A DNA stretch of 22,064 nt from an uncultured archaeon (GTDB taxonomy: Archaea > Iainarchaeota > Iainarchaeia > Iainarchaeales > Iainarchaeaceae), in contig CAZNZM010000003.1 of NCBI GenBank assembly GCA_964577555.1, forward strand, positions 125,015-147,078, written 5' to 3'. Made by a program: the position numbers and the translations under genes. The notes below the pieces were generated by a model, which was given only the letters and a program-made list of their open reading frames with translations, searched no databases and was not told the origin of the DNA. Shown piece after piece: positions 1,306-20,866 of this stretch (position 1 is its first letter; the number at the start of each line of letters is the position of its first letter).

Positions 1306-2681
1306 TATTTCAACCTTTTTTTCCAGTAATCGCAAATTTTTTCCGTCTTTCTTTCGGCTATGCCTGTGTAATTTTTCGGGTTTTTTATTATTTCTATTTC
1401 TTTTTTTGAAAATTTTTTTATAAAGCCATGCAACTCTGGGTCTTTCATTGCAATTTCTAATATTCCGATTCCGCTTTTCTTTGACTCAATAGTCAATTTT
1501 CTTACGCATTCGTGTGCATTTGTGTGTCCGTATTTTGCAAGCAAAATGTAAAGGGGCTCGGCGACTATTTTTTCCCTGCTCATTTCAAAATTTTTTGTCA
1601 TGGAGTCTTTGTCAACAATCATTTTTTTTGAGACATTTGCAAGTCTTTTTGATGTGACAATTAATGCGAGGAAAAATTCTGGTATGAATCTTGCGCTTGC
1701 GCTATTGGTTAAATCACGTTGGTGTTCTGAAATTGCATCAAGGTGGAAAGTGACAATCCTTGGCATGAATGCTTTCCAAAGGCTTTTGGCGTTTTCAAAA
1801 TTAATGGGGTTTCGTTTGTGTGGCATTGTGCTTGAACCTACTTGTTCTTCTTCAAAGCTTTCCGCGATTTCCGATATTTCGGTTCTTTGCAAATGCCTCA
1901 TGTCGTCGGAGAAATTTGCAAGTACTGCAAATGCTTCCGATGTTGAGTGAAGAAGGTCAAGCATTGGTTCTGGTTCAACTATTTGAGTTGAGTGCATTGG
2001 TTGGCAAAGTCCGAGTTCGTCCATAATATCTTTTTCGAGTTTTTCAGGGTTGCTTACTAAAATTGAACTGGCGTTGAAACAACCTACTGCTCCTGAAAAT
2101 TTTCCTTCCAATTTTTTTGCGCACCAATCCATTGAGGAAATGGCTCTGCCAAGCCTGTTTATATAACCAGCCATTGCAAAGCCGAATGTTATTGGTTCGG
2201 CGTGTTGTCCGTGTGTTCTGCCTATTTGCAAAGTGCTCTTTTCTCTTAAGGCGATTTCTATCCACACGTCAAGAAGTTCTTTCAATTCAGGTATGACAAA
2301 TTCGATAACCGCGTCTTTATACCTTGCAGCAGATGCGGTATCAACAATATCGTATGATGTTGCGGAAAAATGGACAAACGGCTTGGCTTCATCCGAAATT
2401 TTTGCTCTGATAACATTGACAAGAGCCCTTACATCGTGCTTGATTTTTTTTTCTTCTGCATAAACTTCTTCCGCAGTGATTTTTTCTGCTGCGTTGGCAA
2501 TTTCCTCATATGCTTTTTTCGTGCAAACCCCTTGTTTGTAAAGCGCTTTGGCTAGCGCGACTTCAACTTTTGCTTGATATTTTATTCTGGCGTTTTCCGA
2601 AAAATATTTTCCAGCCTTGGCAGCCAATGTTTCATCAATATAGCGATAATCTAGAGGGGAGAAAAAATCGAATTTATTCAA
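1305..2681 (-). CDS. purB: Adenylosuccinate lyase
   Basis: Fumarate-lyase family signature GSSTMPHKRNP in a 458-aa PurB-like sequence. The start codon is TTG at 2681-2679, preceded by GGTGAT (2690-2685) with a 3-nt spacer. Confidence 0.95.
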   Translation of the reverse strand: MNKFDFFSPLDYRYIDETLAAKAGKYFSENARIKYQAKVEVALAKALYKQGVCTKKAYEEIANAAEKITAEEVYAEEKKIKHDVRALVNVIRAKISDEAKPFVHFSATSYDIVDTASAARYKDAVIEFVIPELKELLDVWIEIALREKSTLQIGRTHGQHAEPITFGFAMAGYINRLGRAISSMDWCAKKLEGKFSGAVGCFNASSILVSNPEKLEKDIMDELGLCQPMHSTQIVEPEPMLDLLHSTSEAFAVLANFSDDMRHLQRTEISEIAESFEEEQVGSSTMPHKRNPINFENAKSLWKAFMPRIVTFHLDAISEHQRDLTNSASARFIPEFFLALIVTSKRLANVSKKMIVDKDSMTKNFEMSREKIVAEPLYILLAKYGHTNAHECVRKLTIESKKSGIGILEIAMKDPELHGFIKKFSKKEIEIIKNPKNYTGIAERKTEKICDYWKKRLK

Positions 2682-2770
2682 TGCATCACCAATAAAAATT
2701 TGATATTTATGGTTTTTTAAAGGCTGATGAAAACATTACCAACTTAATAATTAGTGCATTAAATTTATCA

Positions 2771-3439
2771 ATGCCGAAAAAATCGCCGAAAAGCATAATT
2801 CAATTTTTTTCAAATAGTACTGGAAAATTTTACCAATTGATTCCAACCAAAACTTTGCCTGCCTTGAGAATAAATGCCGTGCCAATGCACAAATTTGCAA
2901 AACTTGACCCGCTTGAAGATGTCAAAAGAAAAATATCGGTTTTAAGGCCGCATGGAAGGATTTTGGATACTTGCATGGGTCTTGGGTATACTGCAATTTA
3001 TTCTGCTAAACTTAATGAAGTCAAGCAAGTCACAACGATAGAAAAAGACCAAGAAGTAATAAAGATTTGCAAGTTCAACCACGCAAGTTCAAATTTGTTC
3101 GTCAACAGCAAAATAAAAATAATTGAAGGTGATGTGTCCGAAATAGTTTCAGGTTTTCATGATAATTTTTTTGATTGCATTATTCATGATCCGCCAACGT
3201 ATGTTGTGGCGCCGGAGCTTTATTCAAAAAATTTTTACTTGGAATTGTTTCGTGTGTTGAAGTTTGGGGGAAGGCTTTGGCATTATGCGGCAATGCCTGG
3301 AAAATCCAGTGGCAAAAGTTCAAGCTTGCCGAATAAAATAATTTCTGGACTTGAATCTGTTGGCTTTGTAGGAATTGAACACGATTTGTATTCAGACGGA
3401 ATAATTTGCTCCAAGCCTTCCGGCATCAAAAATTTTTAG
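2771..3439 (+). CDS. Class I SAM-dependent methyltransferase (DPPxY-type; resembles the predicted archaeal methyltransferase family, COG2521-like, from memory)
   Basis: SAM-binding motif I ILDTCMGLGYTAI and motif IV IIHDPPTY. ATG start verified. Substrate unknown. Confidence 0.75.
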   Translation: MPKKSPKSIIQFFSNSTGKFYQLIPTKTLPALRINAVPMHKFAKLDPLEDVKRKISVLRPHGRILDTCMGLGYTAIYSAKLNEVKQVTTIEKDQEVIKICKFNHASSNLFVNSKIKIIEGDVSEIVSGFHDNFFDCIIHDPPTYVVAPELYSKNFYLELFRVLKFGGRLWHYAAMPGKSSGKSSSLPNKIISGLESVGFVGIEHDLYSDGIICSKPSGIKNF

Positions 3440-3463: not shown

Positions 3464-4429
3464 TCAATTGCTTTTTTCAAGAAAGGCTTTGTATTTGTTC
3501 ATTACTTCTTCAAGTGGCGGTGCCTTGAATATTTTTTCTCCGGTCCAGGCATCGCATACGCTCTTGTACATTTCTGAAACAATCTGGACAAGTTCTGTTG
3601 GAAGTTTTGGAGGCTCTGGCCAAGCGGCTTTTTCAAGTCCTTTGTTTTTGGCTTCTTCCAATTCTGCGTACCATGGCAATTTTTTGTAGTAATCCCTGCA
3701 AACTTGTTTGCTTACATGGATTCCGTTCCACAAAAACCTGTTTTCGTCCAAAGTGCCGCATACATCCACAAGCATAAGTTCGTTTTTTGGGGTTATGGCA
3801 AATTCTACTTTTCCGTCCGCGTGTTCGAGCCCTATTTGAGCTGCTTTTTCGGTGATAAAGTCGTTGATGTTAAGGACTGCTTCTTTTAATTCGTACATTT
3901 GGTCTTCAGTTATTTGTGAAAGTTCAAGTGCTTCATCCCATGAAAGATACCTGTCGGTTGGTTCTAATTTGGTGCTTACATCGAGAAAGGCTTTTTCGAA
4001 TTTGTGGCCGGGTTGTGGTTCAATAGAAAGTCCGAGGTCATCTAATGTTAATTCGCCTGTTTGCAGTCTTTTGAATACAGAGCTGCCGGGAGGCAAAGTG
4101 TTTCTAAAAATTATTTCCAAAGGAATCAAGTAATTTGTGGTTTCTTCGTAAATTTTTACTTTTTGCGGGTCGAGTACTCTTACCAAGTTTATTTGCATTT
4201 TGTTTCCTGAAATTAGTTTTCTGAAATGTGTTTTTATGTCAAATCTTTTTTCTATTTCTTTGAAATTGTAAGCTGCTTGTCTGCAAAGCGCTTCGCCTTT
4301 GCCTGGGATTTTGTCCGGCATCTTGCCATAATCAAAAACCGAGTAATCATCAGTGAATTCAAAAATTCCTATTCCCATTGAATCTTCAGTAGCTTCTTTT
4401 TCAATTATCAAGTTTTTTACGGAACCCAT
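3464..4429 (-). CDS. purC: Phosphoribosylaminoimidazole-succinocarboxamide (SAICAR) synthase, long form
   Basis: N-terminal GSVKNL...FTDDYSVFDYG...IPGKGEAL and LVDVCGTLDENRFLW are typical of PurC. ATG at 4429 is preceded by GGTGG (4438-4434) with a 4-nt spacer. Confidence 0.92.
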   Translation of the reverse strand: MGSVKNLIIEKEATEDSMGIGIFEFTDDYSVFDYGKMPDKIPGKGEALCRQAAYNFKEIEKRFDIKTHFRKLISGNKMQINLVRVLDPQKVKIYEETTNYLIPLEIIFRNTLPPGSSVFKRLQTGELTLDDLGLSIEPQPGHKFEKAFLDVSTKLEPTDRYLSWDEALELSQITEDQMYELKEAVLNINDFITEKAAQIGLEHADGKVEFAITPKNELMLVDVCGTLDENRFLWNGIHVSKQVCRDYYKKLPWYAELEEAKNKGLEKAAWPEPPKLPTELVQIVSEMYKSVCDAWTGEKIFKAPPLEEVMNKYKAFLEKSN

Positions 4430-4497: not shown

Positions 4498-5310
4498 TTA
4501 TTCAGCAGATCTTGAAATCAAGGTTGATTGCTTGTTGCTTTCAATGACTTTTTGTGCTTCGCTTCTTCTCAATTCCAAGAGGACTTTTGAATAATTTCCG
4601 TTTAGATTGGCTAGTTGAATTGCTGCAATAACTGCGTTTTTGTAGTTGTTCAATCCTACGCAATATGATGATTGAAGAGTGTCAAAGAATTTGATTGCGT
4701 CTTTTTTTGAATTTTTTTTTGCAACTGGGCAAATAATTGTCGAGTTTTGCGTTGCAGTAGGCTTTTTTCCAAGTTTTACGAAATCAACGAAGATTTTTGA
4801 GTGTTCAAGTTTTTTTGTGTTGGGTGATTCGGAAAAAGGTATTTTATTTGTTTCCAGGAATTTTTTTGCTTTTTCGTAGTATTCTTTTTCAATGTTGGCG
4901 GTTTTTTTTACCAACGCAATTTCGGTAAATCCGTGTAAAAAATTTCCGCAAAGGCTTACCGCTTTTTCCACTTTTCCCACGCCAACTGCAATGACTGGGA
5001 CTCCGGGTGGCATTTGGGTGCAACTTAGAAAGGAATCAAGTCCGTTGAAGGCGCCTTCGCATGGAATTCCTATGACTGGCTTGATTTTTTTTGATGCTAT
5101 GACTCCTGGCAAAGCCGCAGCTAACCCTGCTCCTGCAATAAAAATTTCTGCAGCCGAGTCGTTTATTTCGAATTCAAGTTCTTTCGGGGTTTTGTGCGCG
5201 CTTAACACTCTGAAATCAAATGAAATGCCTGACCTTTTCAGCCTTGCGTTGAGGTCGTTATAAGTTTTTTCATCTGTTGAAGAGCCAAAAACAACCATTA
5301 CTTCTGCCAT
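4498..5310 (-). CDS. purE: PurE (AIR carboxylase / N5-CAIR mutase family) with a class II-like SAHK motif and an extra C-terminal partial repeat
   Basis: MAEVMVVFGSSTD, SAHKTP, AGAGLAAALPGVIA and VIGIPC...QMPPGVPVIAVGV. The start is moved to the ATG at 5310, preceded by GGTG at 5320-5317. The upstream extension to 5409 would cross the divergent purA promoter. Confidence 0.85.
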   Translation of the reverse strand: MAEVMVVFGSSTDEKTYNDLNARLKRSGISFDFRVLSAHKTPKELEFEINDSAAEIFIAGAGLAAALPGVIASKKIKPVIGIPCEGAFNGLDSFLSCTQMPPGVPVIAVGVGKVEKAVSLCGNFLHGFTEIALVKKTANIEKEYYEKAKKFLETNKIPFSESPNTKKLEHSKIFVDFVKLGKKPTATQNSTIICPVAKKNSKKDAIKFFDTLQSSYCVGLNNYKNAVIAAIQLANLNGNYSKVLLELRRSEAQKVIESNKQSTLISRSAE

Positions 5311-5335
5311 TTTAAACACCAAAAAAATCATGATT

Positions 5336-5358
5336 GGAAGATTTAATATTTTTAGTGG
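5336..5358 (-). promoter_or_regulatory. Putative TATA-like box for purE (minus strand aaaaatattaaatc)
   Basis: A/T box centred about 36 nt upstream of the purE ATG. The same spacing is seen for the other SD-led genes here. Confidence 0.4.
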
Positions 5359-5415
5359 TTCGGTTTCAAAATTTTGTTTTTTTGGTGTTTTGTTTGCTTG
5401 TTTTTTCAACGATTC

Positions 5416-5456: not shown

Positions 5457-6728
5457 ATGGTTGGCACTGTTATTATTGGTTCGCAATTTGGTGATGAAGG
5501 AAAGGGCAAGGTCACTGATTTTTATGCCGCCAAAACTGATTGTGTTGTAAGGTATCAAGGCGGTAATAATGCAGGCCATACTGTGGTTGTCAGGGATAAG
5601 ACTATAAAATTTCATTTGTTGCCAAGCGGGGTTGTTCAAGGAAAAAGAATATTGATTGGCGCTGGAGTTGTTTTGGATCCAAGGGTTTTGAGAAATGAGA
5701 TTGAGCATTTGAAGGAACTTAAATTGTTTGTTGATTTGGGCATAGACCCGCGTACTCACATAATAATGCCTTGGCATAATCTTTTTGATGAGGGCAGGGA
5801 GGAAAGCAGGAGTAAGACTAAAATAGGGACTACTAAAAGAGGCATCGGGCCTTGCTATGCTGACAAGGCTGAAAGGATAGGATTAAGATTTGAGGATTTG
5901 GTTGATGAAAAGAGGTTGAAAGAAAAAATTGATGAAGTTTTTCCAATAAAAAAGGCTATTCTTGAAAAGGCTTATAAAATAAAAGTGCCTTTTACAAAGG
6001 AAGATGTTTATGCCGAGTATTCGGTTCTTGGAGCTGAATTCAGAAATTTCTTGTGTGATGTGAGCCTTGAAGTGTGTGAAAAGCTTGAATCTGGAAAAGA
6101 TGTTTTGTTTGAAGGTGCTCAAGGAACTTTTTTGGATAATGATTTTGGGACTTATCCTTTTGTGACTAGTTCTCATCCTATTTCTGGCGGCGTGGCGACT
6201 GGTGTTGGAATGCCTTTTTCAAAAATTAAGAGGATAGTTGGCATTGTCAAAGCATATACTACTAGAGTCGGTTTTGGGCCTTTTCCAACAGAGCTTAAGG
6301 ATGAAATTGGCGATTTTTTGACTCAAAAGGGGAACGAGTTTGGCACTACTACTGGAAGAAAAAGGCGTGTTGGTTGGCTTGATCTTCCGATGCTCAGGAC
6401 TTCTCATCGCTTGAATGGTTTTACTGAATTGGCGATAACAAAGTTAGATGTTTTGAGCGGGCTTGATAAAGTAAAAATTTGTTTGAATTATAAAATAGGC
6501 GGAAAGGAAATAAGGTATTTTCCTTATAGCAACAAGGGTCTTGAAAGCGCCGAGCCTGTTTATAAGGAATTTGACGGTTTTGAGGTTACTGGAAAGGAAA
6601 AGGAGTATGATGATTTGGATTCTAATGCGAAAAAATATTTGGAGTTTATTGAAAAGGAAATAGGCGTGCCAATAAGGCTTGTTTCTGTTGGGCCAGAAAG
6701 AGAAGAAACAATAATAAAAATACTTTGA
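5457..6728 (+). CDS. purA: Adenylosuccinate synthetase
   Basis: GSQFGDEGKGK P-loop, GGNNAGHT, GTTKRGIGPCY and TTTGRKRRVGW. The start is moved to the ATG at 5457 (MVGTVIIGSQFGDEGKGK); the ORF-track extension from 5334 is hydrophobic junk over the promoter region. Confidence 0.95.
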   Translation: MVGTVIIGSQFGDEGKGKVTDFYAAKTDCVVRYQGGNNAGHTVVVRDKTIKFHLLPSGVVQGKRILIGAGVVLDPRVLRNEIEHLKELKLFVDLGIDPRTHIIMPWHNLFDEGREESRSKTKIGTTKRGIGPCYADKAERIGLRFEDLVDEKRLKEKIDEVFPIKKAILEKAYKIKVPFTKEDVYAEYSVLGAEFRNFLCDVSLEVCEKLESGKDVLFEGAQGTFLDNDFGTYPFVTSSHPISGGVATGVGMPFSKIKRIVGIVKAYTTRVGFGPFPTELKDEIGDFLTQKGNEFGTTTGRKRRVGWLDLPMLRTSHRLNGFTELAITKLDVLSGLDKVKICLNYKIGGKEIRYFPYSNKGLESAEPVYKEFDGFEVTGKEKEYDDLDSNAKKYLEFIEKEIGVPIRLVSVGPEREETIIKIL

Positions 6729-6740
6729 AGCGCGTTTGAA

Positions 6741-6760
6741 TTATTTTTGTGTTTTTGTCT
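6741..6760 (+). terminator. Possible oligo-T terminator for purA
   Basis: T5 runs at 6744-6748 and 6752-6756 directly after the purA stop. Archaeal RNA polymerase terminates at oligo-T. This cannot be separated from the repeat array that starts here. Confidence 0.3.
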
Positions 6761-7032
6761 TTTGCAAGGCTTTTTTTTAGTTTTGGTTTTTTTTGTCTTT
6801 TTTTTGTTTGTTTTGTGAGCCAATTTTTTGTTTTTTTTTGGGGAGCCAAATTTTTTTGTCATTTTTTTGAATTTGTTTTTTTTTATTTAAATTGTTTTGT
6901 TTTTTTTGCTTGTTTTTTTAGATGTTTTTTTTGAATTGTTTTTTTTTGGTTTTGTTTTGGCAAGCCGTTTTATTTTTTTTGTTTTTTTTGTTTGAATTTT
7001 TGTTTTTTTTGCAAGCCGAATTTTTTTTGTTG

Positions 7033-7090
7033 TTTTTTTGATCTGTTCTTTTGTTTTTTTTGGTGAGCCAATTTTTTTTGTAATTTTTTT
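7033..7090. repeat. 58-bp perfect direct repeat, copy 1 (tttttttgatctgttcttttgttttttttggtgagccaattttttttgtaattttttt)
   Basis: Base-for-base identical to 7333-7390; offset exactly 300 bp. Confidence 0.95.
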
Positions 7091-7168
7091 GTGAATTTGT
7101 TTTTTTTTATTTAAATTGTTTTGTCTTTTTTTTGTCTTGTTTTTTTTGTTTGTTTTTGGCGAGCCGTT

Positions 7169-7471
7169 TTATTTTTTTATTTTTTTTGTTTGAAATTTTG
7201 TTTTTTTTCGGGCTATTTTTTTGTTGAGCCAATGTTGTTTTTTTGGTGTTTTTTTTATTTTTTTTAGTTTTGGTTTTTTTTTGAAGTTTTTTAGTTTATG
7301 TTTTTTTTGGCGAGCCGTTTTATTTTTTTTATTTTTTTTGATCTGTTCTTTTGTTTTTTTTGGTGAGCCAATTTTTTTTGTAATTTTTTTTGTCTTGTTG
7401 TTTTTTAGCCAAGGTCGTTTTTTGTTGTTTGTTTTTGCTAGCCTTTTTTTTTCAATTTTTAATTTTGTCAT
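7169..7471 (-). CDS. Questionable lysine-rich ORF inside repeat array B (100 codons, includes a GSPKK motif)
   Basis: ATGACA start at 7471 with an A/T-rich box (7485-7498) upstream. The composition is almost only K/N/Q/T/P, which any frame of an A/C-only strand would give. The conserved GAGCCAA cores are read in different frames in neighbouring ORFs. Confidence 0.2.
   Translation of the reverse strand: MTKLKIEKKRLAKTNNKKRPWLKNNKTKKITKKIGSPKKTKEQIKKNKKNKTARQKKHKLKNFKKKPKLKKIKKTPKKQHWLNKKIARKKTKFQTKKIKK
7333..7390. repeat. 58-bp perfect direct repeat, copy 2
   Basis: Base-for-base identical to 7033-7090. Confidence 0.95.
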
Positions 7472-7643
7472 TTTTTTGGTATTTTTATTTTAAAAATTAA
7501 AATTGTTTTGTTTTGGCGAACAGATTTTTTGTATTTTTTTGAATTTATTTTTTTTTAATTTTGTTTATTTTTTGTTTTTTTTGCAATCCTTTTTTTGTCG
7601 ATTTTTTGTTTTTTTAATATATTTTCGTGTTTTAATTTGTTGT

Positions 7644-8099: not shown

Positions 8100-9434
8100 A
8101 TGGTTGGCAAGCCGTTGAAAAAGTCTGACAGGGAAGTTTTTGATTTGATTCAATCTGAAACCAAGAGGCAGGAAAATGGGCTTGAAATGATTCCTTCTGA
8201 AAATAATTGTAGTATTGCAGTTAGGGAGGCGCTTGGCTCAGTTTTTACTGACAAATACTCTGAAGGCTATCCTAAAAAAAGATATTATGGCGGACAAGAA
8301 TTTGTGGACAAATTGGAGTTGCTTGCAATTGAACGTGCAAAAAAATTGTTTGGAGTTGAACATGTCAATGTTCAGCCTTACTCTGGAAGTCCTGCAAATC
8401 AGGCTGTTTATTTTGCGTTGCTTAATGCTGGAGATGTGGTGATGGGTCAGAGCCTTACGGCAGGAGGGCATTTGACTCATGGTTGGAAGGTGAATTTTTC
8501 GGGAAAAACATATAAAAGCGTGCAATACAATGTCAAGCCTGATGGCTATATTGATATTGAGGAAGTGAAAAGACTTGCACATGAACACAAACCTAAATTG
8601 ATTTGGGTTGGGGCAACTGCTTATCCGAGACAACTTCCTTTTAAGGAATTTTCAGAAATAGCGGAAGGGGTTGGAGCTTATCTTGCCGCTGACATTTCGC
8701 ATATTTCAGGGCTTGTTGCAGGCGGAGTTCATGAAAGTCCTGTCAAGTACGTGCATATTGTAACCACTACAACTCACAAGACATTGCGTGGCCCCAGAGG
8801 AGCAATGATAATGGTTACTAAAAAGGGAATTGAAAAGGATTTTGAATTGCCTTCAAAAATAGACAAGGCTGTGTTTCCGGGTTTGCAAGGGGGGCCTCAT
8901 GACCATCAAACCGCGGCAATAGCAGTTGCTTTGGGTGAAGCATTAAAACCACAGTTTAAAGAGTATGCTGCCCAAATAGTCAATAATACTAAGGCTTTGG
9001 CGGAATCGCTTAAAAAAAATGGGGTTAAGCTTGTTACTGGCGGTTCGGACAATCACTTGATTTTGATAGACTTGACTCCTTTTGGAAAGGGAAAAGGGCT
9101 TTATTGTCAACAAGGACTTGAAAAAGCCGGAATAACAGTTAATAAAAACACTATTCCTTTTGATCCGAGTTCTCCATTCTATCCTAGTGGCATAAGGCTT
9201 GGGACTCCTGCTTTGACAACAAGAGGCATGAAAGAAAAGGAAATGAAAATAATAGGTGAATTGATAGCAAGAGTAATAAAAAAAGTGGCAGTATATGATT
9301 TTTATGAAGACAAGGATGAAAGGGAAAAGGTTATACAAGAGGTAATGGAAAGAATTGAAAATGATGCTGAAATAAAAGAGATTCATAAAGAAGTTCTGAA
9401 ACTTTGCAAAAAATTCCCGTTGCATTCCAAGTGA
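8100..9434 (+). CDS. glyA: Serine hydroxymethyltransferase
   Basis: SENNCS, YSGSPANQAV and TTTTHKTLRGPRG (PLP-lysine motif). The start is moved to the ATG at 8100; the track start at 8094 is a GTG. Confidence 0.96.
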   Translation: MVGKPLKKSDREVFDLIQSETKRQENGLEMIPSENNCSIAVREALGSVFTDKYSEGYPKKRYYGGQEFVDKLELLAIERAKKLFGVEHVNVQPYSGSPANQAVYFALLNAGDVVMGQSLTAGGHLTHGWKVNFSGKTYKSVQYNVKPDGYIDIEEVKRLAHEHKPKLIWVGATAYPRQLPFKEFSEIAEGVGAYLAADISHISGLVAGGVHESPVKYVHIVTTTTHKTLRGPRGAMIMVTKKGIEKDFELPSKIDKAVFPGLQGGPHDHQTAAIAVALGEALKPQFKEYAAQIVNNTKALAESLKKNGVKLVTGGSDNHLILIDLTPFGKGKGLYCQQGLEKAGITVNKNTIPFDPSSPFYPSGIRLGTPALTTRGMKEKEMKIIGELIARVIKKVAVYDFYEDKDEREKVIQEVMERIENDAEIKEIHKEVLKLCKKFPLHSK

Positions 9435-12520: not shown

Positions 12521-12540
12521 AAATAATTTTTTTGGAATTT
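12521..12540 (+). terminator. Possible oligo-T terminator for the glyA-folD-purN-purH unit
   Basis: T7 run at 12527-12533 immediately after the purH stop. It merges into repeat array C. Confidence 0.3.
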
Positions 12541-12860
12541 TAATGGCTGAACTTGTTTTTTTTGTCAATTTTTTTAACCATTTTTTTGTATTAGCTTTTT
12601 TTAGGGTTGTTTTTTTGCCAGATGTTTTTTTTGTTTTTTATTATTTTTTTAATTTTCTAAATCAATTTTTGTATCTAATCAGTTTTTTAGCCAATTTATT
12701 TTTTTAAATTCTTTTTTTTGTCAAGTTTTTTGCAAGCATTTTTTTGAATTTTGATTTTTTTTTCAATTTAGTTTTTTTTGGTGAGCCATTTTTTCATGAA
12801 ATTATTTTTTTATTTGTTTTTTGCCTGTTTTTTTGAACATTTTTTAACCAAAAACCCTAT
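12521..12860. repeat. T-rich (+ strand) low-complexity repeat array, locus C
   Basis: Same style as the other arrays: ggtgagcca (12780-12788) followed by ttttttcat, ttagccaattt (about 12688) and tgcaagcattttttt (about 12731), with T6-T9 runs throughout. Confidence 0.8.
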
Positions 12861-12868
12861 CAAAAAAC

Positions 12869-12880
12869 TTTATTAATATA
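12869..12880 (+). promoter_or_regulatory. Putative TATA box for the ABC transporter operon (tttattaatata)
   Basis: Centred about 26-27 nt upstream of the ATG at 12901 with no SD, consistent with a leaderless archaeal mRNA. Confidence 0.45.
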
Positions 12881-12900
12881 GATTAATTAATTTTACTTAA

Positions 12901-13851: not shown

Positions 13852-15833
13852 TGCCAAAGAGCATTTTGTCAATAATTGAATATTTTCCAGGTTATAAAAT
13901 ATTGGCAATTGCGTCAAAGGAAATAAATTTGATAAAAAACCAAAAAGTGGCTCTTGCGTTGCTCATAATTTATCCTTTAATAGTCATACTTACCCTTGGG
14001 ACAGCATATTCTGGCGACACGTCAATTGGCAAAATAGAAGTTGCATTATATGCGCCTAATGAAATTTCAAAATTTGAAACCTCAAAACTTATTGAAAAAC
14101 TCAAAAAATCCGAATCTATAAACATAATCAAAGTAGACGACGAAAACCAAGTAAGGGAAATGGTGATGAAAAGAAAAGCCAAGGTTGGAATAATAATTAG
14201 GGAACCAGAGCCAACACAAGGACGCTTTGTGGTGGATATTATTAATGACAATTCAAATATAATAAATTCAGTTTTCTTTTTCCAAGTTGCTTCAGATTCA
14301 ATAAGAGCCATAGGCTTTCAAACGTCCCAGGAGATGCTTTCAGAAATTTGGACTGGCCTTGATACGATCAAGCAAAAACTTCAATTGGAATCTGAAAAAA
14401 TAAACGAATTCACAAAAAAACTTGGTGAAGTGGAAAGCCAAATAATTGATTTGAATAATACAGTAAACAGCATTGATGTTGAGGAAATGCGTACAAAGCT
14501 TCAAAGCCAAAAAAGAATGATTGATGAACTTGAACCAAAAATAACCGTGTTTCAACAAAAAATAAGTTCATTCAGAGAACTCAAACAAAAAAATTCCAAA
14601 AGAATAAAGAATGCAAAAATGAAAATTTCAGAATATAAAGAAATAATAAATTCTATTGATAGGCAATCCAAGGAAGCAAAAGAATATTGTACTTCAGAAA
14701 AATACGCAAACGCAGTAAAAAACACTCCAGAGTTAAAGGAATTGTGTGACCAAATAATTTCTTCATTTAATGATCTTCAAAAAATTATTAATGAATTTAA
14801 TTCATTGGAAAGAGAATTGACTGAAGCCGAAAAGGAATTTGATTCAATAGAAATAGAACTTAACAATGCTTCAAGGGATCTTCAAATAATCAAGCAGCGT
14901 TTTTCGCAAGTTCAAGGTGATATAAATTATTTTAACAGTCAATTGTCAAGTTTGCAGGGAACTATAAACAAAGTTAATGGGCTTATAAGCAACGCTGTTG
15001 AAACTGAAAAATCTATAAGAAACGATTTGAAAGACGCAGCAAAAATCCTTGATTCGTTCATATATAATATAAAGCAATTGTCAATGGTGAGTCCCGAATT
15101 TCTTTCTAATCCTGTCATAATAAACAAAAACAGTATTTATAAAGCATCAAAACTTGAAATAATAACTCCTATTGCACTTGTATTGGTTATAATGCTTACA
15201 TCTATACTTTTGACTGGTGTCTCTTTTGTAAATGAGAGAAATGAGGGGGCTTATTCAAGGCTTATTTTGTCTCCTACAAGTAAATTGGAGCTTTTCCTTG
15301 GAAAAGTATTTGGACAACTAATGATTTCAATTTTTGAGGCCGGCGTTATAATGTTTGTTGCAATATTTTTCTTTGGGGTAAGGATATCTGGAATATCCAT
15401 AACAATTTTTGATATTTTCGACGCGGTTTCTGGCAAGTCCAATTTAATGCAAATATTTTCCAATTTTTTCAGTTTGAATTTTATCCTTGGTTTGTTTAAC
15501 CTTTTAGCAGTAACCATCGTAATAGGATTTGCGTTCATTTGTTTGGGTTTGTTCATATCTAATTATACAAAAATGCAATCAACCACTATTCTTGCAGGTC
15601 TTTTGGCAGTCATTCCAATGATATTTATAAGTGGTATAATAATTCCAATGGAATTTATGAGTGAAATTGTTCAAAAAATAAGCATTATCCAACCTTTGAA
15701 CCTTGGAATAGTACTTGCAACCGAGGTAATAATCAAAAATACAATGATTGCAAATTTGGTTTCTGAATGTATAAAATTGATAGTTCCTGGCATAATTTTC
15801 TTTTTGTTTACGATTTTAAACAGGAATCTTTAA
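13851..15833 (+). CDS. ABC-2 family permease with a large extracytoplasmic coiled-coil insert (YhgE/Pip-like architecture)
   Basis: An N-terminal TM helix (ALALLIIYPLIVILTLG) is followed by about 400 aa of soluble region. Roughly residues 165-415 of this are heptad-like, K/E/Q/N/I/L-rich sequence. A C-terminal multi-TM ABC-2-type domain follows. Translationally coupled to the ATPase. Confidence 0.8.
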   Translation: MPKSILSIIEYFPGYKILAIASKEINLIKNQKVALALLIIYPLIVILTLGTAYSGDTSIGKIEVALYAPNEISKFETSKLIEKLKKSESINIIKVDDENQVREMVMKRKAKVGIIIREPEPTQGRFVVDIINDNSNIINSVFFFQVASDSIRAIGFQTSQEMLSEIWTGLDTIKQKLQLESEKINEFTKKLGEVESQIIDLNNTVNSIDVEEMRTKLQSQKRMIDELEPKITVFQQKISSFRELKQKNSKRIKNAKMKISEYKEIINSIDRQSKEAKEYCTSEKYANAVKNTPELKELCDQIISSFNDLQKIINEFNSLERELTEAEKEFDSIEIELNNASRDLQIIKQRFSQVQGDINYFNSQLSSLQGTINKVNGLISNAVETEKSIRNDLKDAAKILDSFIYNIKQLSMVSPEFLSNPVIINKNSIYKASKLEIITPIALVLVIMLTSILLTGVSFVNERNEGAYSRLILSPTSKLELFLGKVFGQLMISIFEAGVIMFVAIFFFGVRISGISITIFDIFDAVSGKSNLMQIFSNFFSLNFILGLFNLLAVTIVIGFAFICLGLFISNYTKMQSTTILAGLLAVIPMIFISGIIIPMEFMSEIVQKISIIQPLNLGIVLATEVIIKNTMIANLVSECIKLIVPGIIFFLFTILNRNL

Positions 15834-16387
15834 ATTTTGGCTTTTGCAAAAAACAAGATTGCTAATATTAACAAAGGCACGCCAATATAAAAAATCAGCA
15901 AGATTATTGATTGCAAATTTGAGATGTTAAAAAATTTTTCAAAAACCTCGTTAGTGAAATAAAGATAAAGAGCCATGCTTATTGTAATAAAAACTGCTCC
16001 TGCAAATTCTGCAAAAGGGATCATGACAACAAAAGCCAATATACAGGCAGAAGCTGCAAGAAAATAGTTTATTGCAATTAGTTTTGGCAGTTCTCCTTTG
16101 GATGAAAAAATTCTTGATATGAAAAAAATTATTAAAGAACTTAAAGGTATTTCAACAAGCAGTGATATGAATATTCCAAGAAAAATCCAGCTTTTTGTTA
16201 GAATGTTTTCTAAAAAGTTGGAATTATATGTTATTACTGAGAATGCTGAGGAAATTGCCCAATAAAGAAAAGTAACTACTGCAAGAAGCAATATTGACAT
16301 GAAAATGCTGCGGTTTTCTTCAACAACTGTTCCGATTGGTTTGTAAAAAGTCATTACATCAAACATTTCTCTGATATTTTCGGACAT
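15830..16387 (-). CDS. Polytopic integral membrane protein (about 5 TM; possibly Yip1-domain-like)
   Basis: ATG verified at 16387 (MSENIREMF). Five hydrophobic segments follow a short polar N-terminus. Its stop shares the TTAA at 15830-15833 with the convergent permease stop. The family call is weak. Confidence 0.7.
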   Translation of the reverse strand: MSENIREMFDVMTFYKPIGTVVEENRSIFMSILLLAVVTFLYWAISSAFSVITYNSNFLENILTKSWIFLGIFISLLVEIPLSSLIIFFISRIFSSKGELPKLIAINYFLAASACILAFVVMIPFAEFAGAVFITISMALYLYFTNEVFEKFFNISNLQSIILLIFYIGVPLLILAILFFAKAKI

Positions 16388-16469
16388 TTTAACACTAATG
16401 AAATCTACAAAGTCCGAGAATTTAAACTTTTCTGAAAATTCGCAAGACTGTGCTGTGTTGTCATAGCGC

Positions 16470-17124
16470 CAATGTTTTTTATTGTTTTGTTTTTTGCGGG
16501 CCTTTTTTTTGAAATTATTTTTTATTTAAAATAAATTTTTTTGTCATTGGCTTGGTTTTTTTTGAATTGTTTTTCTGATTTTTGTTTTTTGTTGATTTTT
16601 TTTACAAGCCAAATTTTTTTTTCAGTCATTTTTTTGTGAATTTGTTTTTATTTCGTTTTAAATTATTTTTTTGTTTTTTTAGTTTATTTTATTTTTTTTG
16701 TCTTTGTTGGCTTGATTTTTTTTGTTTGAAATTTGTTTTTTTTGAATCAATTTTTTGGCGTATTGTTTTTGTTTTTTGTTTATTTTTGCAAGCCAATTTT
16801 TTTTTCAGTCATTTTTTTGATTTTTTTTGTTTTGTTTTAATTATTTTTTTTGTCTTTGTTGGCTTGGTTTTTTTGGGTTTTGTTTTTTTTGTTTTTGTGA
16901 GCCAATTTTTTGCAACCCATTTTTTACCACTTTTATTTTTTTTAAAGTAAAATTTTGTTTTTGGTCTTTAGTTTGTTTTTTTCCGAGCCGTTCTTTTGAC
17001 AATTTTTATTTTTTTTAGTTTTATTTTTTGTGTTGTCTTTTTGCTGTTTGTTTTTTTTGAGACGTGTTTTTTATTTGAATTATTTTTTTGAATTCGCTTG
17101 TTTCTTTTCTTTTCCGTATGAATT
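16470..17124. repeat. T-rich (+ strand) low-complexity repeat array, locus D, with tandem units of about 150-185 bp
   Basis: caagccaa(a)-T9-cagtcat at 16605-16629 and 16789-16812. gtgagccaa at 16897-16905. gtc(a/ttt)(t)tggcttg at 16543-16554, 16701-16714 and 16853-16866. The gtttgaaatttgtttttttt module is shared with locus B. Confidence 0.88.
16522..16629 (-). CDS. Questionable lysine-rich mini-ORF in array D (35 codons: MTEKKIWLVKKINKKQKSEKQFKKNQANDKKIYFK)
   Basis: ATGACTG start with a TATA-like ttttaaatta (16656-16665) about 31 nt upstream. The sister copy starting at 16812 stops after only 10 codons, so there is no protein-level conservation. Confidence 0.15.
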   Translation of the reverse strand: MTEKKIWLVKKINKKQKSEKQFKKNQANDKKIYFK

Positions 17125-17865
17125 TTATTTTTTTAAGTATTCAAATGCGTTTTCAAAAATTTTTCTTCCTTCGCCTTCTTCTTTTATTTTTCCGTATTCT
17201 GAATTTGGAGCATTTATTCCGAAAAGATTTCTTTCTGGGTGAGGCATTAATCCAAAGACCCTGCCTGTTTGGTCGCAAATTCCAGCTATTGAATCAGTAG
17301 AGCCGTTTGGGTTTTCTTCGTACTTGAATACTATTTGTTTGTTTTCATATAGTTTTTCCAATGTTTTTTTGTCTTTTGTTATGAATTGTCCTTCTCCGTG
17401 GGCTATTGGAACTTCAAGTGTTTCTATTTCTTTTGTGAAAACGCATTTGCTGTTTTGTCCTTTAAGTTTTACCCATTTACATTGAAAACCTATTGGATCG
17501 TTAAGGGTAAGCGTTGTGAGTTGTTCTGAATATTTTTTTTCAAAGCCTGGAAGTATGCCTGCTTTTACCATTACTTGGAATCCATTGCATATGCCTATTG
17601 CTAGGTTGCCTTCGTTTATAAATTCTGGGATTTGCTGTCCCAATTTGAATATTATTTTGTTGGCAAATACTTTTCCTGATCCTAAATAATCTCCTGCTGC
17701 AAAGCCTCCTGGCAATGCCAAGAGCCTGAAATTTTCGAGGTTTTTTGTTCCTTTAATAAGTTCGTTAATATGGACGTTTTCTATTTCAAATCCTGCGCAT
17801 TTTAATGCAAAGCCTAATTCGTAGTCGCAATTTGTTCCAGCGGCTCGCAAAATCATTGCCTTCAT
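17125..17865 (-). CDS. purQ: FGAM synthase, glutamine amidotransferase subunit
   Basis: Catalytic GICNGFQ and MPHPER. The start is moved to the ATG at 17865 (MKAMILRAAGTNCD), 1 nt after the purL stop, with GGTGG inside the purL 3' end. The track start at 17922 overlaps purL by 56 nt. Confidence 0.93.
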   Translation of the reverse strand: MKAMILRAAGTNCDYELGFALKCAGFEIENVHINELIKGTKNLENFRLLALPGGFAAGDYLGSGKVFANKIIFKLGQQIPEFINEGNLAIGICNGFQVMVKAGILPGFEKKYSEQLTTLTLNDPIGFQCKWVKLKGQNSKCVFTKEIETLEVPIAHGEGQFITKDKKTLEKLYENKQIVFKYEENPNGSTDSIAGICDQTGRVFGLMPHPERNLFGINAPNSEYGKIKEEGEGRKIFENAFEYLKK

Positions 17866-17866
17866 T

Positions 17867-20242
17867 TTACCACCATAAAGTTTTTTTCCATGCTTTTTTA
17901 AGTTCTGCAAGGCTTTCTTCAATCAATTTTTTTTCTTTGAAATTTATTATTAATTTTTTTTGTTTTGTCACTTCTCCTATTTTTGAAAACTCTGCACCTT
18001 CCAAGGCTTTTTCAAATTCTTTTTCTTTTCCTTTCGCGACTTCAACAAGCATTCTTGAATTTGATTCGGAGAAAAGCAAAATGTCTGGTCTTTCTATTTT
18101 TTCTCCTGTAATTATTTTTTCACATTTTATTTTAGCTCCAAATCCTGAACCAAAAGACATTTCAGACAAGGCAACTGCAATCCCGCCTTCAGAACAATCG
18201 TGGCAGGCAGTTATGATTTTTTCATTTGTGTCTTGGCTTGCAATTAATTTACTTAATATTGAATATGTTTTTTTTGCTGACTTGAATCTTACTTTAGGCA
18301 CTTTGCCGGACTTTGTTTTTGTTAGTTTGTAATAATGGCTTCCTCCAAGTTCATCATATGTTTGCCCTAAAATATAAATGCTGTTTCCTTCCCTTTTAAA
18401 TGGCATTGAAATTTTTTTTCTTGAGTCTTCAATTATTCCTATTGCAGAAATTAAGAGTGTGCCTGGTATTGAAATGTTTTTGTCGTTTGCTTTGTATTCA
18501 TTGTATAAGCTGTCTTTTCCTGAAATGAATGGCGTGTTGAATTCGATTGATGCGTCGTGGCATCCTTTGCAAGCTCTTACAAGTTCTCCTAATGTTTCTT
18601 TTTTTTCAGGGTTGCCCCATGAAAAGTTGTCTAGCAATGCGATTTTTTCAAAATCCGCTCCAACGCATATAGCGTTTCTTATTGCTTCATCTATTGTGGA
18701 GCAAGCCATCCAATAAGGATCTATGTCGGTGTAGAAGGGATTTATTCCGTTGGCAATGACAACTCCTTTCCAGCAATCAAGTAATGGTCTGACTATTGCA
18801 GCGTCGCTTGGTGCATCAGATTCTGGCCCAACAAATGGTTTTAGGACTGTTCCGCCTCTGACTTCATGATCATACTTTCTTACTGTTTTTTCTTTGCTGC
18901 AAATGTTTGGCATTGATAAAATGCTTTTTAGAATTTTGCCATAATCTTCTGGTTCTTTTGGTTTTGCTGTTTTTTCTTTTTTTTCAATCCATTCAGCTTC
19001 AAGTTCTTTTTTTGGGTTTCCGTTGTGCAGGAAATCCATGTCCAGTTCTCCTACAAGTTCTTGTTTGTAATAAAGCTCCAATTTTTTTGTGTCTGTAAAT
19101 TCGCCTATGATAGTGGCCTCTGTTCCTTCTATTTCGCATATTTCCTTGATTTTTTGGAAATTATTTTTTGGCACTGCAAGTATCATTCTTTCTTGTGCTT
19201 CTGACAACCATATTTCCCATGGTTGTAGGCCTTCGTATTTTAAAGGCGCTTTTTCTAAATATACTTTTGCACCTGTTTTTGAACCCATTTCGCCAATTGC
19301 TGATGAAAAGCCTCCTGCACCGCAATCGGTTATTGCGGTGTAAAGCTTTAAATCCCTGGCTTTTAGTATTGCTTCAATCATTTTTTTTTCTTCAATAGGA
19401 TTGCCTATTTGGACTACGCTTGAAGAAATTTCTGAAGTGAGTTCGGTTGATGAAAATGTTGCTCCATGAAGCCCGTCTCTTCCTGTCCTTCCGCCTATAA
19501 CAACTATTAGTTCTCCTGGGGATGCTTTTTTTTGTGTCATTTCTTTTGGTATTATGCCAATTGTTCCACAATAAACAAGCGGGTTTCCAAGGTAGCGTGG
19601 CTCGAAAAGTATTGCTCCATTGACTGTGGGTATTCCGAGTTTGTTGCCGTAATCCATTATTCCTGCTCTTACTCCTTTGAATATTCTTTTAGGATGCAAT
19701 ACTCCTTTAGGGATTTTTTGCAATTCAGTGTCGTGGTTGCCAAAACATAGTACATCCGTGCAGGCAAAAGGCCTTGCTCCAAGCCCTGCTCCAAGAACGT
19801 CTCTTATTACTCCTCCAACTCCGGTGTTTGCTCCGCCGAATGGGTCTAATGCGCTTGGATGGTTGTGGGTTTCCACTTTTATAGCAATGTCATAATTTTC
19901 GTTGAATTGTATTATGCCAGCATTGTCTGAAAATACTGATGCTAACCATTTTTTTTCGGATTTGTATGTTGGTTCGCGAATGTATGTTTTGAATAGGCTG
20001 TCTATTTTTTCTTGCTTCCCGTTTTCTTTGTAATTTATCAATGCGTTGAATGTTTTGTGTTTGCAGTGTTCGCTCCAGGTTTGCGCAATTGTTTCAAGTT
20101 CTATGTGGGTTGGTTCGCGCCCTATTTTTTTGTAATATTTTTGTATTTGAAGCATTTCAGTTTGGTTAAGGGATAATAGCATTTTTTTGCTTAATTCTAT
20201 CAATTCTTTTTCATTCATTTTTGAAATCTTGATTTCACTCAT
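17867..20242 (-). CDS. purL: FGAM synthase subunit II (small-type PurL)
   Basis: WSEHCKHKTF and ETHNHPSALDPFGGANTGVGG, with duplicated PurM-like domains. ATG verified at 20242. Confidence 0.96.
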   Translation of the reverse strand: MSEIKISKMNEKELIELSKKMLLSLNQTEMLQIQKYYKKIGREPTHIELETIAQTWSEHCKHKTFNALINYKENGKQEKIDSLFKTYIREPTYKSEKKWLASVFSDNAGIIQFNENYDIAIKVETHNHPSALDPFGGANTGVGGVIRDVLGAGLGARPFACTDVLCFGNHDTELQKIPKGVLHPKRIFKGVRAGIMDYGNKLGIPTVNGAILFEPRYLGNPLVYCGTIGIIPKEMTQKKASPGELIVVIGGRTGRDGLHGATFSSTELTSEISSSVVQIGNPIEEKKMIEAILKARDLKLYTAITDCGAGGFSSAIGEMGSKTGAKVYLEKAPLKYEGLQPWEIWLSEAQERMILAVPKNNFQKIKEICEIEGTEATIIGEFTDTKKLELYYKQELVGELDMDFLHNGNPKKELEAEWIEKKEKTAKPKEPEDYGKILKSILSMPNICSKEKTVRKYDHEVRGGTVLKPFVGPESDAPSDAAIVRPLLDCWKGVVIANGINPFYTDIDPYWMACSTIDEAIRNAICVGADFEKIALLDNFSWGNPEKKETLGELVRACKGCHDASIEFNTPFISGKDSLYNEYKANDKNISIPGTLLISAIGIIEDSRKKISMPFKREGNSIYILGQTYDELGGSHYYKLTKTKSGKVPKVRFKSAKKTYSILSKLIASQDTNEKIITACHDCSEGGIAVALSEMSFGSGFGAKIKCEKIITGEKIERPDILLFSESNSRMLVEVAKGKEKEFEKALEGAEFSKIGEVTKQKKLIINFKEKKLIEESLAELKKAWKKTLWW

Positions 20243-20717
20243 TTTTTTCGCCTATTTCATAGGTTTCAATTACTGAATTTGCAAGCAATTCTTTGGTTAT
20301 GCGTTTTATGTCATTTTTTGTTATTTTTCCATAAAAATAGTATTTTTTTCCTGTTCTTATTTTTGCTTCTAATTTTTTTCCCGTAAAATCCTCTATTGCT
20401 TCTGCCATGACTATGCCTAAGTTGTCTGTAACTCCTTCGTGCAGTTTTACTTCCACCCAATAGTTGCTGTCTTTGTAAAAATTTTCGTCTATTGAAAATT
20501 TTTGAATTAAAGGATCAATAATGGCTTTTTCGCAAATTATAGAGAGTGTTTCTTTTTCCAAGTTTGATTCTATGTGGTATGTTTCGCAGAATCTTATTGA
20601 TTCAATTCCTTTTATTAGCAAATCTTCTTCTATGTCGTTTTTTGTTGAAATTCCTACTGCATCAAGCCTTTTTTCGGTAATCGCTGTTTCGATTCTGTGT
20701 TTTTGTTTCACAATCAA
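20235..20717 (-). CDS. purS: PurS-like FGAM synthase subunit, tandem double-PurS fusion (about 160 aa)
   Basis: Two consecutive PurS-like halves, each ending in a PurS-type C-terminus. Half 1 is about residues 8-75 (DAVGISTKNDIEEDLLIKGIESIR...EKAIIDPLIQKFSI). Half 2 is about residues 85-155 (WVEVKLHEGVTDNLG...KELLANSVIETYEI). Overlaps the purL start by 8 nt. The start is uncertain: TTG at 20717 or GTG at 20711. Confidence 0.8.
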   Translation of the reverse strand: MIVKQKHRIETAITEKRLDAVGISTKNDIEEDLLIKGIESIRFCETYHIESNLEKETLSIICEKAIIDPLIQKFSIDENFYKDSNYWVEVKLHEGVTDNLGIVMAEAIEDFTGKKLEAKIRTGKKYYFYGKITKNDIKRITKELLANSVIETYEIGEKNE

Positions 20718-20729
20718 AATTAAGACTGA

Positions 20730-20742
20730 AACTTTTAAATTT
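20730..20742 (-). promoter_or_regulatory. Putative TATA box for purS-purL-purQ (aacttttaaattt; minus strand aaatttaaaagtt)
   Basis: Exact 13-mer also present at 20867-20879. The core is centred about 20 nt from TTG 20717 and about 26 nt from GTG 20711. Confidence 0.45.
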
Positions 20743-20866
20743 CAATTGATGTCATTGGCTACGTTGTTTTATTGTAACTTTGCAAGACTTTTTGGCATAT
20801 TATACTTATTGTTTTTTATTGATTTTTTTTGCAATCGTGCTATTTTTTTGTGAGAGTTGTTGCGGT

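Follow-up and report, generated by a model that had tools for sequence, protein, structure and literature searches.

A putative young family of non-coding mosaic repeats in the intergenic spacers of an archaeal purine-biosynthesis cluster

In enterobacteria, arrays of bacterial interspersed mosaic elements (BIMEs) and their repetitive extragenic palindromic (REP) units are extragenic and non-coding, and they are concentrated at gene 3' ends and between convergent genes. Each BIME is a mosaic in which a few short motifs vary in order and number, and the presence and length of BIMEs are strain- or lineage-specific. The REP units themselves are imperfect palindromes of ~35 nt that alternate in orientation and are mobilised by REP-associated tyrosine transposases (RAYTs). 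Minisatellites and “cryptically simple” DNA, which arise by slippage and unequal exchange, are mostly found in eukaryotes and seldom in streamlined prokaryotic genomes. Miniature inverted-repeat transposable elements (MITEs), including the archaeal SM elements of Sulfolobus, are small, non-coding, multi-copy and insertion-polymorphic. The genomes of DPANN archaea are small and tightly packed. Here we analyze a 22,064-nt stretch of DNA (the window) that, judged by its sequence, is a purine-biosynthesis cluster of a DPANN archaeon near Diapherotrites/Iainarchaeota and that contains four A-rich intergenic repeat arrays. We consider it reasonably probable that the region holds a lineage-specific, young family of non-coding mosaic repeats, which has been expanding at oligo-T/A spacers by duplication or template switching.

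In behavior, this repeat family appears to be closest to the enterobacterial BIME/REP arrays and to minisatellite-like simple sequence. With BIME/REP arrays it shares an extragenic location at gene 3' ends, a mosaic of short motifs, lineage-specific presence and length, and the lack of coding function; however, the words here are not hairpins, they stand in one orientation with A7-9 runs between them, they belong to an archaeon, and no RAYT-like gene was seen. With minisatellites and cryptically simple DNA it shares short motifs in scrambled order, higher-order tandem duplications, fast changes in length and strong strand asymmetry, whereas a defined ~80-nt unit common to separate loci sets it apart. 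Copies lie head to tail and length has changed among close relatives, but the copies are degenerate and shuffled, which makes the family a loose member of the minisatellite-like class. Abundant intergenic TAACTGA direct repeats are reported from marine Beggiatoaceae (PMC4679880). Those repeats are likewise a lineage-specific short direct repeat filling many intergenic regions, but they are a strict bacterial heptamer, in contrast to the heterogeneous A-tract-bounded words and 80-nt archaeal unit found here. We found no description in the literature of such arrays in DPANN or Diapherotrites.

The original prediction, made from the letters of the window, described repeat units at 16522-16870 as resembling leaderless promoter-plus-start modules for lysine-rich mini-open reading frames (ORFs) on the minus strand. 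We find that these modules are parts of four intergenic arrays, at 1-297 (R1), 6729-7643 (R2), 12521-12900 (R3) and 16388-17124 (R4), which together make up ~11% of the window. The arrays occur exclusively in spacers that hold a gene's 3' end, and the A-rich strand is the same in all four. This minus strand is 58-67% A, and 37-46% of its bases lie within runs of five to nine A (A5-9), with run length peaking at 7-8. The building blocks are short G/C-containing words, each flanked by A7-9 runs; most read (T)TGGCTYRC(C) or CGGCTYGCC, and the others are CCAAGCCAA, AAAGAC, TGAC(TG) and GNTTGC variants. The word GGCTYRC occurs 20 times in the window versus 5.25 expected, with 12 of the 20 inside the four A-rich spacers and there on the minus strand without exception, and the combination ATGACWRAAAAAA N0-6 TTGGCTYRC occurs twice against an expectation of 0.00.

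To establish the age of the arrays, we turned to sister contigs from five other samples (L111, L112 and L203-L207), which are collinear with the window at 85-91% nucleotide identity. Between the purA stop and the orf125 stop, where the window has the 914 nt of R2, the sisters have 13-14 nt. The unaligned stretch after purH is 13 nt in the sisters versus 319 nt in the window (R3), and that between purQ and the membrane-protein gene is 20 nt versus 679 nt (R4). In the more distant L117 (GlyA 80% identical), purA is followed after 40 nt by orf128, the homologue of orf125, and this compact arrangement polarizes R2 as a gain. Absence at three of the four sites in collinear sisters that differ by ~12% in DNA indicates that R2-R4 are recent and lineage-specific.

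One sister carries an array of its own. In L203 (Joint Genome Institute (JGI) 3300010938 Ga0137716_10008266), positions 2517-3127 form an array of ~600 nt at the R1 position, downstream of purM and in the same orientation, with called ORFs of 37 and 64 aa within it; the other three sites of this contig are compact, with spacers of 13-78 nt. Its units are composed of CCAAGCCRA, AAAGAC, A8, a TTTAAAT-like box, TGAC, A8 and (T)TGGCTYGC. Two of the three complete units have TTGAC instead of ATGAC, so the conserved element is TGAC and not a start codon. Matches to a unit profile (nhmmer) were confined to the window contig and L203, the composite motif had no occurrence in 927 kb from 86 related loci, and no A-run-dense region besides the L203 array was found among ~200 other loci. 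A scan of genome contigs for the AAAAAATTGGCTYRCNAAAA pattern gave only single chance matches in unrelated bacteria, and unit patterns had no matches in viral contigs. A further contig, L104, was considered as array-bearing and set aside; its A-runs are scattered across coding sequence.

The arrays and the two smaller features that accompany them are as follows, in window coordinates.

1-297, plus 345 nt to the contig end, minus strand: R1, downstream of purM, with the unit 40-134 (ATG 63, 116-aa ORF).
6730-7643, minus strand: R2, which fills 914 nt where purA and orf125 converge at their 3' ends, with units 6841-6913 (ATG 6862), 7063-7141 (ATT) and 7434-7514 (ATG 7471).
12523-12841, minus strand: R3, a 319-nt insert that separates the purH stop from the ABC-transporter promoter and consists of A-run words with GGCTCACC and GCTTGC words.
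16444-17122, minus strand: R4, the focal array, a 679-nt A-rich mosaic block from the purQ stop to the promoter of the Yip1-like gene, delimited by blastn against L111, L204 and L205 and by composition.
16420-16426, minus strand: TTTAAAT box of the genuine membrane-protein gene promoter (ATG 16387), conserved in sister contigs and outside the inserted array.
20752-20857, minus strand: a small expansion in the divergent purS-purF spacer, with A7-8 runs and GATTGC, GTCTTGC and AGCCAATGAC words.

The last of these spacers measures 106 nt in the window and 40 nt in the sisters, where it already contains AAACTTGGCTGACAAAAAGCCCG; this expansion may be an incipient array.

Read on the minus strand, the ~80-nt unit common to the arrays runs CCAAGCCAA, AAAGAC, A8, a TTTAAAT-like box, ~25 nt, (A)TGAC, A8 and TTGGCTYRC, and individual copies span 73-112 nt. 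Its beginning, CCAAGCCAA-AAAGAC-A8, lies beyond the module originally described. That module itself is present as claimed, with minus-strand ATGAC at 63, 6862, 7471, 16629 and 16812, and the predicted variant with ATT for ATG is found as ATTAC at 7079-7083; all six are followed by an A-run and TTGGCTYRC. Besides the four copies listed for R1 and R2, there are two full copies and a partial one on the minus strand of 16522-16870.

16788-16867, minus strand: complete ~80-nt unit, reading CCAAGCCAAC, AAAGAC, A8, TAATTAAAAC, ..., A7, TGACTG (ATG 16812, 10-aa ORF), A9, TTGGCTTGC.
16604-16715, minus strand: second complete unit, 112 nt long through extra internal A-run words (ATG 16629, 35-aa ORF).
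16490-16555, minus strand: partial or rearranged unit, reading CCAAGCCAATGAC, A7, TTTATTTTAAATAAAAAA, ..., A8, GGCCCGC.

The unit profile matches the first of these, at 16865-16788, with E = 2e-7, and the two complete units share 58 nt at 90% and 34 nt at 97% identity. The same profile finds no complete unit in R3. An alignment of the six modules shows them to be paralogues, with a mean column identity of 73%.

Segmental duplications, both tandem and shuffled, built the arrays without regard to codon phase. R2 contains tandem higher-order duplications with offsets of 152, 198, 224 and 300 nt, and the direct duplicates detected by blastn comprise 102 nt at 100% identity (offset 298), 58 nt at 100% (300), 78 nt at 92% (224), 86 nt at 88% (198) and 34-37 nt at 97% (152). 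Only 5 of 12 internal duplication offsets are in frame, which is the chance level. Different arrays also have segments in common, such as one of 57 nt that is 95% identical in R1 and R4. Tandem Repeats Finder reports degenerate periods of 51, 52 and 99 with 63-83% matches. In R1, which occupies L197 17725-18366, the contig end falls within the exact 102-nt direct repeat, and R1 is therefore probably longer than assembled. Two other identities were considered for the arrays and rejected. For phased A-tract curvature, no array had a spectral peak above token shuffles (top periods 13-15 nt, P = 0.27-0.79). For a replication origin or a CRISPR array, there are four arrays in 22 kb, no constant repeat that is regularly spaced or resembles an origin recognition box, and no orc1/cdc6 or cas gene.

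Each unit does look like an archaeal promoter, in that its conserved TGAC is preceded at 26-30 nt by a TATA-like box. All five ATGAC(T/A) modules have a TTTAAA/ATTAAAA-type box; from the center of this box to the A of the ATG the distance is 26-30 nt, and this spacing agrees with that of genuine genes in the window, where a TTTAAA(A/T) box ends 20-31 nt before the start codon. Given that the modules are paralogues, the common TATA-to-ATG spacing is largely inherited and does not amount to six independent observations. No TTTAAA-type box accompanies the two other ATGAC sites of the focal spacer, at ~16547 and ~16464. The likeness to archaeal promoters with TATA box and B-recognition element, and to their leaderless mRNAs, extends to the TTTAAA(A/T) box, the A-rich upstream side and the conserved T-G/A step (TGAC) 26-30 nt downstream; the difference is that the predicted promoters here have no conserved or plausible gene downstream of them. 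The units may act as promoters, and with such a box ahead of TGAC, a good initiator context, they probably fire short A-rich transcripts from the minus strand. A-rich transcription, spurious or real, is likely to run from R4 toward the membrane-protein gene and from R2 antisense into purA. The prediction also implied that genes here lack a Shine-Dalgarno (SD) sequence. Leaderless-type geometry is indeed present at genuine genes, but purC (3464-4429), purA (5457-6728), glyA (8100-9434) and purB (1305-2681) have a GGTG/AGGTGG SD-like motif 5-11 nt ahead of the start, so the organism is not uniformly leaderless or SD-less.

We next asked whether the lysine-rich ORFs behave as genes. The lengths given originally are correct (10, 35, 100 and 100 aa), and the ORF at ATG 63, which had been suggested as a possible genuine longer gene, was followed leftward and ends inside the repeats as a lysine-rich frame of 116 aa. 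GSPKK occurs in both 100-aa ORFs, where it is the product of TTGGCTC(A/C)CC and the adjoining A-run, and the TTGGCT core is used in all three frames. Against dinucleotide shuffles, the longest open frame is 54 codons versus 85 expected in R4 (P = 0.98), 106 versus 105 in R2, 39 versus 49 in R3 and 121 versus 84 in R1, the last being borderline (P = 0.06). Stop codons are not avoided (array totals of 27-34 versus 26-32 expected), and frame-specific stop depletion is absent in the focal array R4. In the arrays the signal-to-noise ratio of period 3 is 0.9-2.1, and the 100-aa ORF 7169-7471 has 1.27, as against 2.4-28.7 (median ~10) in 17 genes. GC skew on the A-rich strand is -0.24 to -0.45 in R1, R2 and R4 and -0.06 in R3; on gene sense strands it is mostly positive or near zero (-0.17 to +0.37), opposite in sign to the A-rich strand of the arrays. 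Pfam has no family for the lysine-rich ORFs, and the 100-aa and 116-aa ORFs have no homologues even at E <= 10, a negative that is weak because the queries are of low complexity.

These results bear directly on the reading in which every unit works as a leaderless promoter-plus-start module and drives the synthesis of small lysine-rich (SPKK-type) DNA-binding peptides, a reading that we regard as very improbable. It draws on the box ahead of ATG in all five modules, spaced as in genuine genes, on the existence of ORFs of 100, 100 and 116 aa, and on one stop-depleted frame in each of R2 and R1 (quantified below). Five independent tests (ORF length, stops, period 3, duplication frame and homology) oppose it: lengths are at or below chance with focal ORFs of just 10 and 35 aa, period 3 is absent, the core appears in each of the three frames, duplications do not keep to one frame, and there are no homologues or families. 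The skew is contrary to that of most genes, the arrays are missing in sisters at ~88% nucleotide identity, and the ATG is not constant, being ATT in one window unit and TTG in sister units. In the copies available, ORFs are not longer than chance and duplications are random with respect to frame, the very pattern that was named in advance as refuting the prediction. We conclude that the lysine-rich ORFs are almost certainly chance frames, a by-product of poly-A composition. A related idea, that the unit is an active, self-propagating “portable promoter”, a novel type of archaeal repeat that has neither inverted termini nor a transposase, spreads among oligo-A/T spacers via template switching or an RNA intermediate and fires A-rich leaderless transcripts, is quite improbable. 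An A8-9 slippery run every ~15 nt could then allow translation into lysine-rich peptides in any frame, and the transcripts could serve as antisense or read-through RNAs for the neighboring purine genes. It is unlikely, too, that the arrays were selected as one-directional super-terminators or insulators, whose plus-strand T7-9 tracts stop rightward transcription and whose poly(dA:dT) may exclude chromatin proteins. Archaeal termination needs tracts of U4 or longer, its efficacy grows with tract number, and two tracts are enough for aCPSF1 binding (PMC8716108). R2 and R3 come immediately after plus-strand transcription units (purA and glyA-folD-purN-purH), and R4 would halt read-through from the ABC operon into antisense purQLS. 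However, R1 and R4 are in a non-terminating orientation for the minus-strand purB-purM and purSLQ, the tracts lack helical phasing, and the sisters manage with spacers of 13-78 nt. At least two T tracts (of at least four T) lie downstream on the sense strand of purA (R2) and purH (R3), and not of purM (R1) or purQ (R4). Compared with known archaeal oligo-U terminators (aCPSF1/FttA; PMC8716108, PMC7515710), the plus strand is similarly dense in T tracts of at least four, but each array has 19-57 tracts of at least five T versus one to three, far beyond need, and two of the four arrays are oriented wrongly for the operon that ends there. A selected terminator function is possible and is not needed to explain the arrays. 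The RNA of R4 (679 nt) folds at -49.9 kcal/mol and is essentially unstructured, and Rfam gave no match at the gathering score or at E <= 1.

A fairly unlikely alternative is a MITE-like element, or a composite of ~80-nt units, that inserts into the A/T runs of spacers, so that the arrays would be nested or serial insertions. Like MITEs and the Sulfolobus SM elements, the repeats are ~80-110 nt, non-coding and multi-copy. They show insertion polymorphism, with presence or absence relative to the sisters at three loci, and dispersed copies, the unit recurring in three separate spacers and in both lineages. The end cores of the unit are complementary (AGCC ... GGCT), and the two best-preserved copies, both in R4, have complementary 8-mers at their ends (CAAGCCAA ... 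TTGGCTTG). These two copies, however, duplicate one another, and flank complementarity at cognate ends is 2.1/6 versus 1.9/6 for random pairings. A terminal inverted repeat or stem with covariation was considered and dropped when its two compensatory examples vanished in a systematic test. Unlike MITEs, the repeats have no significant terminal inverted repeats, and they form arrays instead of discrete insertions; blastn found no extended inverted copies within or between arrays. Comparison of the R2, R3 and R4 junctions with empty sites (L203, L205, L206) reveals no target-site duplication, although a duplication of pure A/T would be unrecognizable there. The ancestral spacer was apparently replaced and not cleanly split, R3 lacks a complete unit and the contig lacks a transposase. 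Finally, that the arrays are an assembly or sequencing artefact of low-complexity reads is scarcely credible. Contigs do end inside arrays: the window contig and three independent short contigs break there. But the repeats are 100% identical in JGI 3300037501, JGI 3300043267 and Logan SRR12686701 (read sets whose independence is not established), the structured units are unlike homopolymer noise, and the array of the same unit in L203, from another lineage and sample, argues independently against an artefact.

Based on these comparisons, we return to the proposal of a young, non-coding mosaic repeat family. The empty sister spacers already have T4-T7 runs on the plus strand, and at the R2 empty site all 14 nt of the ancestral spacer (atttttgtgccaac) look like a T-run joined to a core word. 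Growth may have started at such oligo-T/oligo-A tracts of ancestral spacers and continued by replication slippage, unequal recombination and template switching, with the A7-9 runs supplying the microhomology by which modules would be duplicated, shuffled and copied between arrays. The array downstream of purM may be the oldest source. Slippage, unequal exchange and template switching thus seem preferable to classical transposition as the mode of growth. On the plus strand, the arrays form dense series of T7-9 tracts and should block rightward transcription, given the dependence of archaeal termination on U4 or longer tracts (PMC8716108).

Several points weigh against this proposal. The unit is common to arrays 7-16 kb apart, so some still hypothetical step of ectopic copying is needed. 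All four arrays have the same strand orientation, for which the probability by chance is 1 in 8. The unit architecture is retained in two lineages, which could mean selection on some function. The 116-aa ORF of R1 exceeds 99% of shuffles, one frame of R2 is stop-poor (4 stops versus 13 and 14; P = 0.018) and so, less clearly, is one of R1 (4 versus 12 and 11; P = 0.07), although in-phase duplications (offsets 300 and 198) inflate this stop depletion; a few frames may occasionally be translated. With respect to genome-wide distribution and copy number, the host data are one 22-kb contig.

If the proposal is right, ~11% of a 22-kb DPANN contig consists of young non-coding repeats without counterpart in close relatives. 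Should the repeats prove to be genome-wide, they would offer a datable natural case in which satellite-like or mosaic repeats have expanded in an archaeal genome, and a source of new promoters or terminators beside conserved operons. No new protein family is revealed. There is also a practical warning, in that gene callers already annotate “hypothetical proteins” of 35-116 aa within the arrays (for instance, the 116-aa one that the JGI annotation places within R1) and that assemblies break there.

The genes around the arrays are, from left to right, purM, purB, a methyltransferase gene, purC, purE, purA, a 125-aa ORF (orf125), glyA, folD, purN, purH and an ABC-2 transporter, followed by a gene for a weakly Yip1-like membrane protein, purQ, purL, purS and purF. 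The window is contained in the 22,409 nt of JGI metagenome contig 3300037501 Ga0394875_0003638, which supplies the 345 nt beyond position 1. The top matches of PurQ among named taxa are “uncultured archaeon”, “Candidatus Diapherotrites archaeon” (~71% identity) and archaeon GW2011_AR10 (61%). No tRNA, tmRNA, transposase, orc1/cdc6 or cas genes were found on the contig.

Three observations concern the genes themselves. The purE (AIRC-domain) ORF at 4498-5409 is 270-303 aa long, depending on the gene caller, versus ~160 aa for a typical PurE, and this excess points to an uncharacterized C-terminal extension. At 15830-15833, the gene for the ABC-2 permease and the Yip1-like gene, which converge, share the last 4 nt of their 3' ends, and this leaves no room for a terminator of its own at either gene. 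In more distant relatives (PurQ 72% identical), the content of the same flank (~15863-20750) differs between L113 and L114/L115: one sample has a 1218-aa Peptidase_S74 protein and another a cluster of small toxin-antitoxin genes (HicA, PIN, RHH, ParE), so that this flank looks like a variable island.

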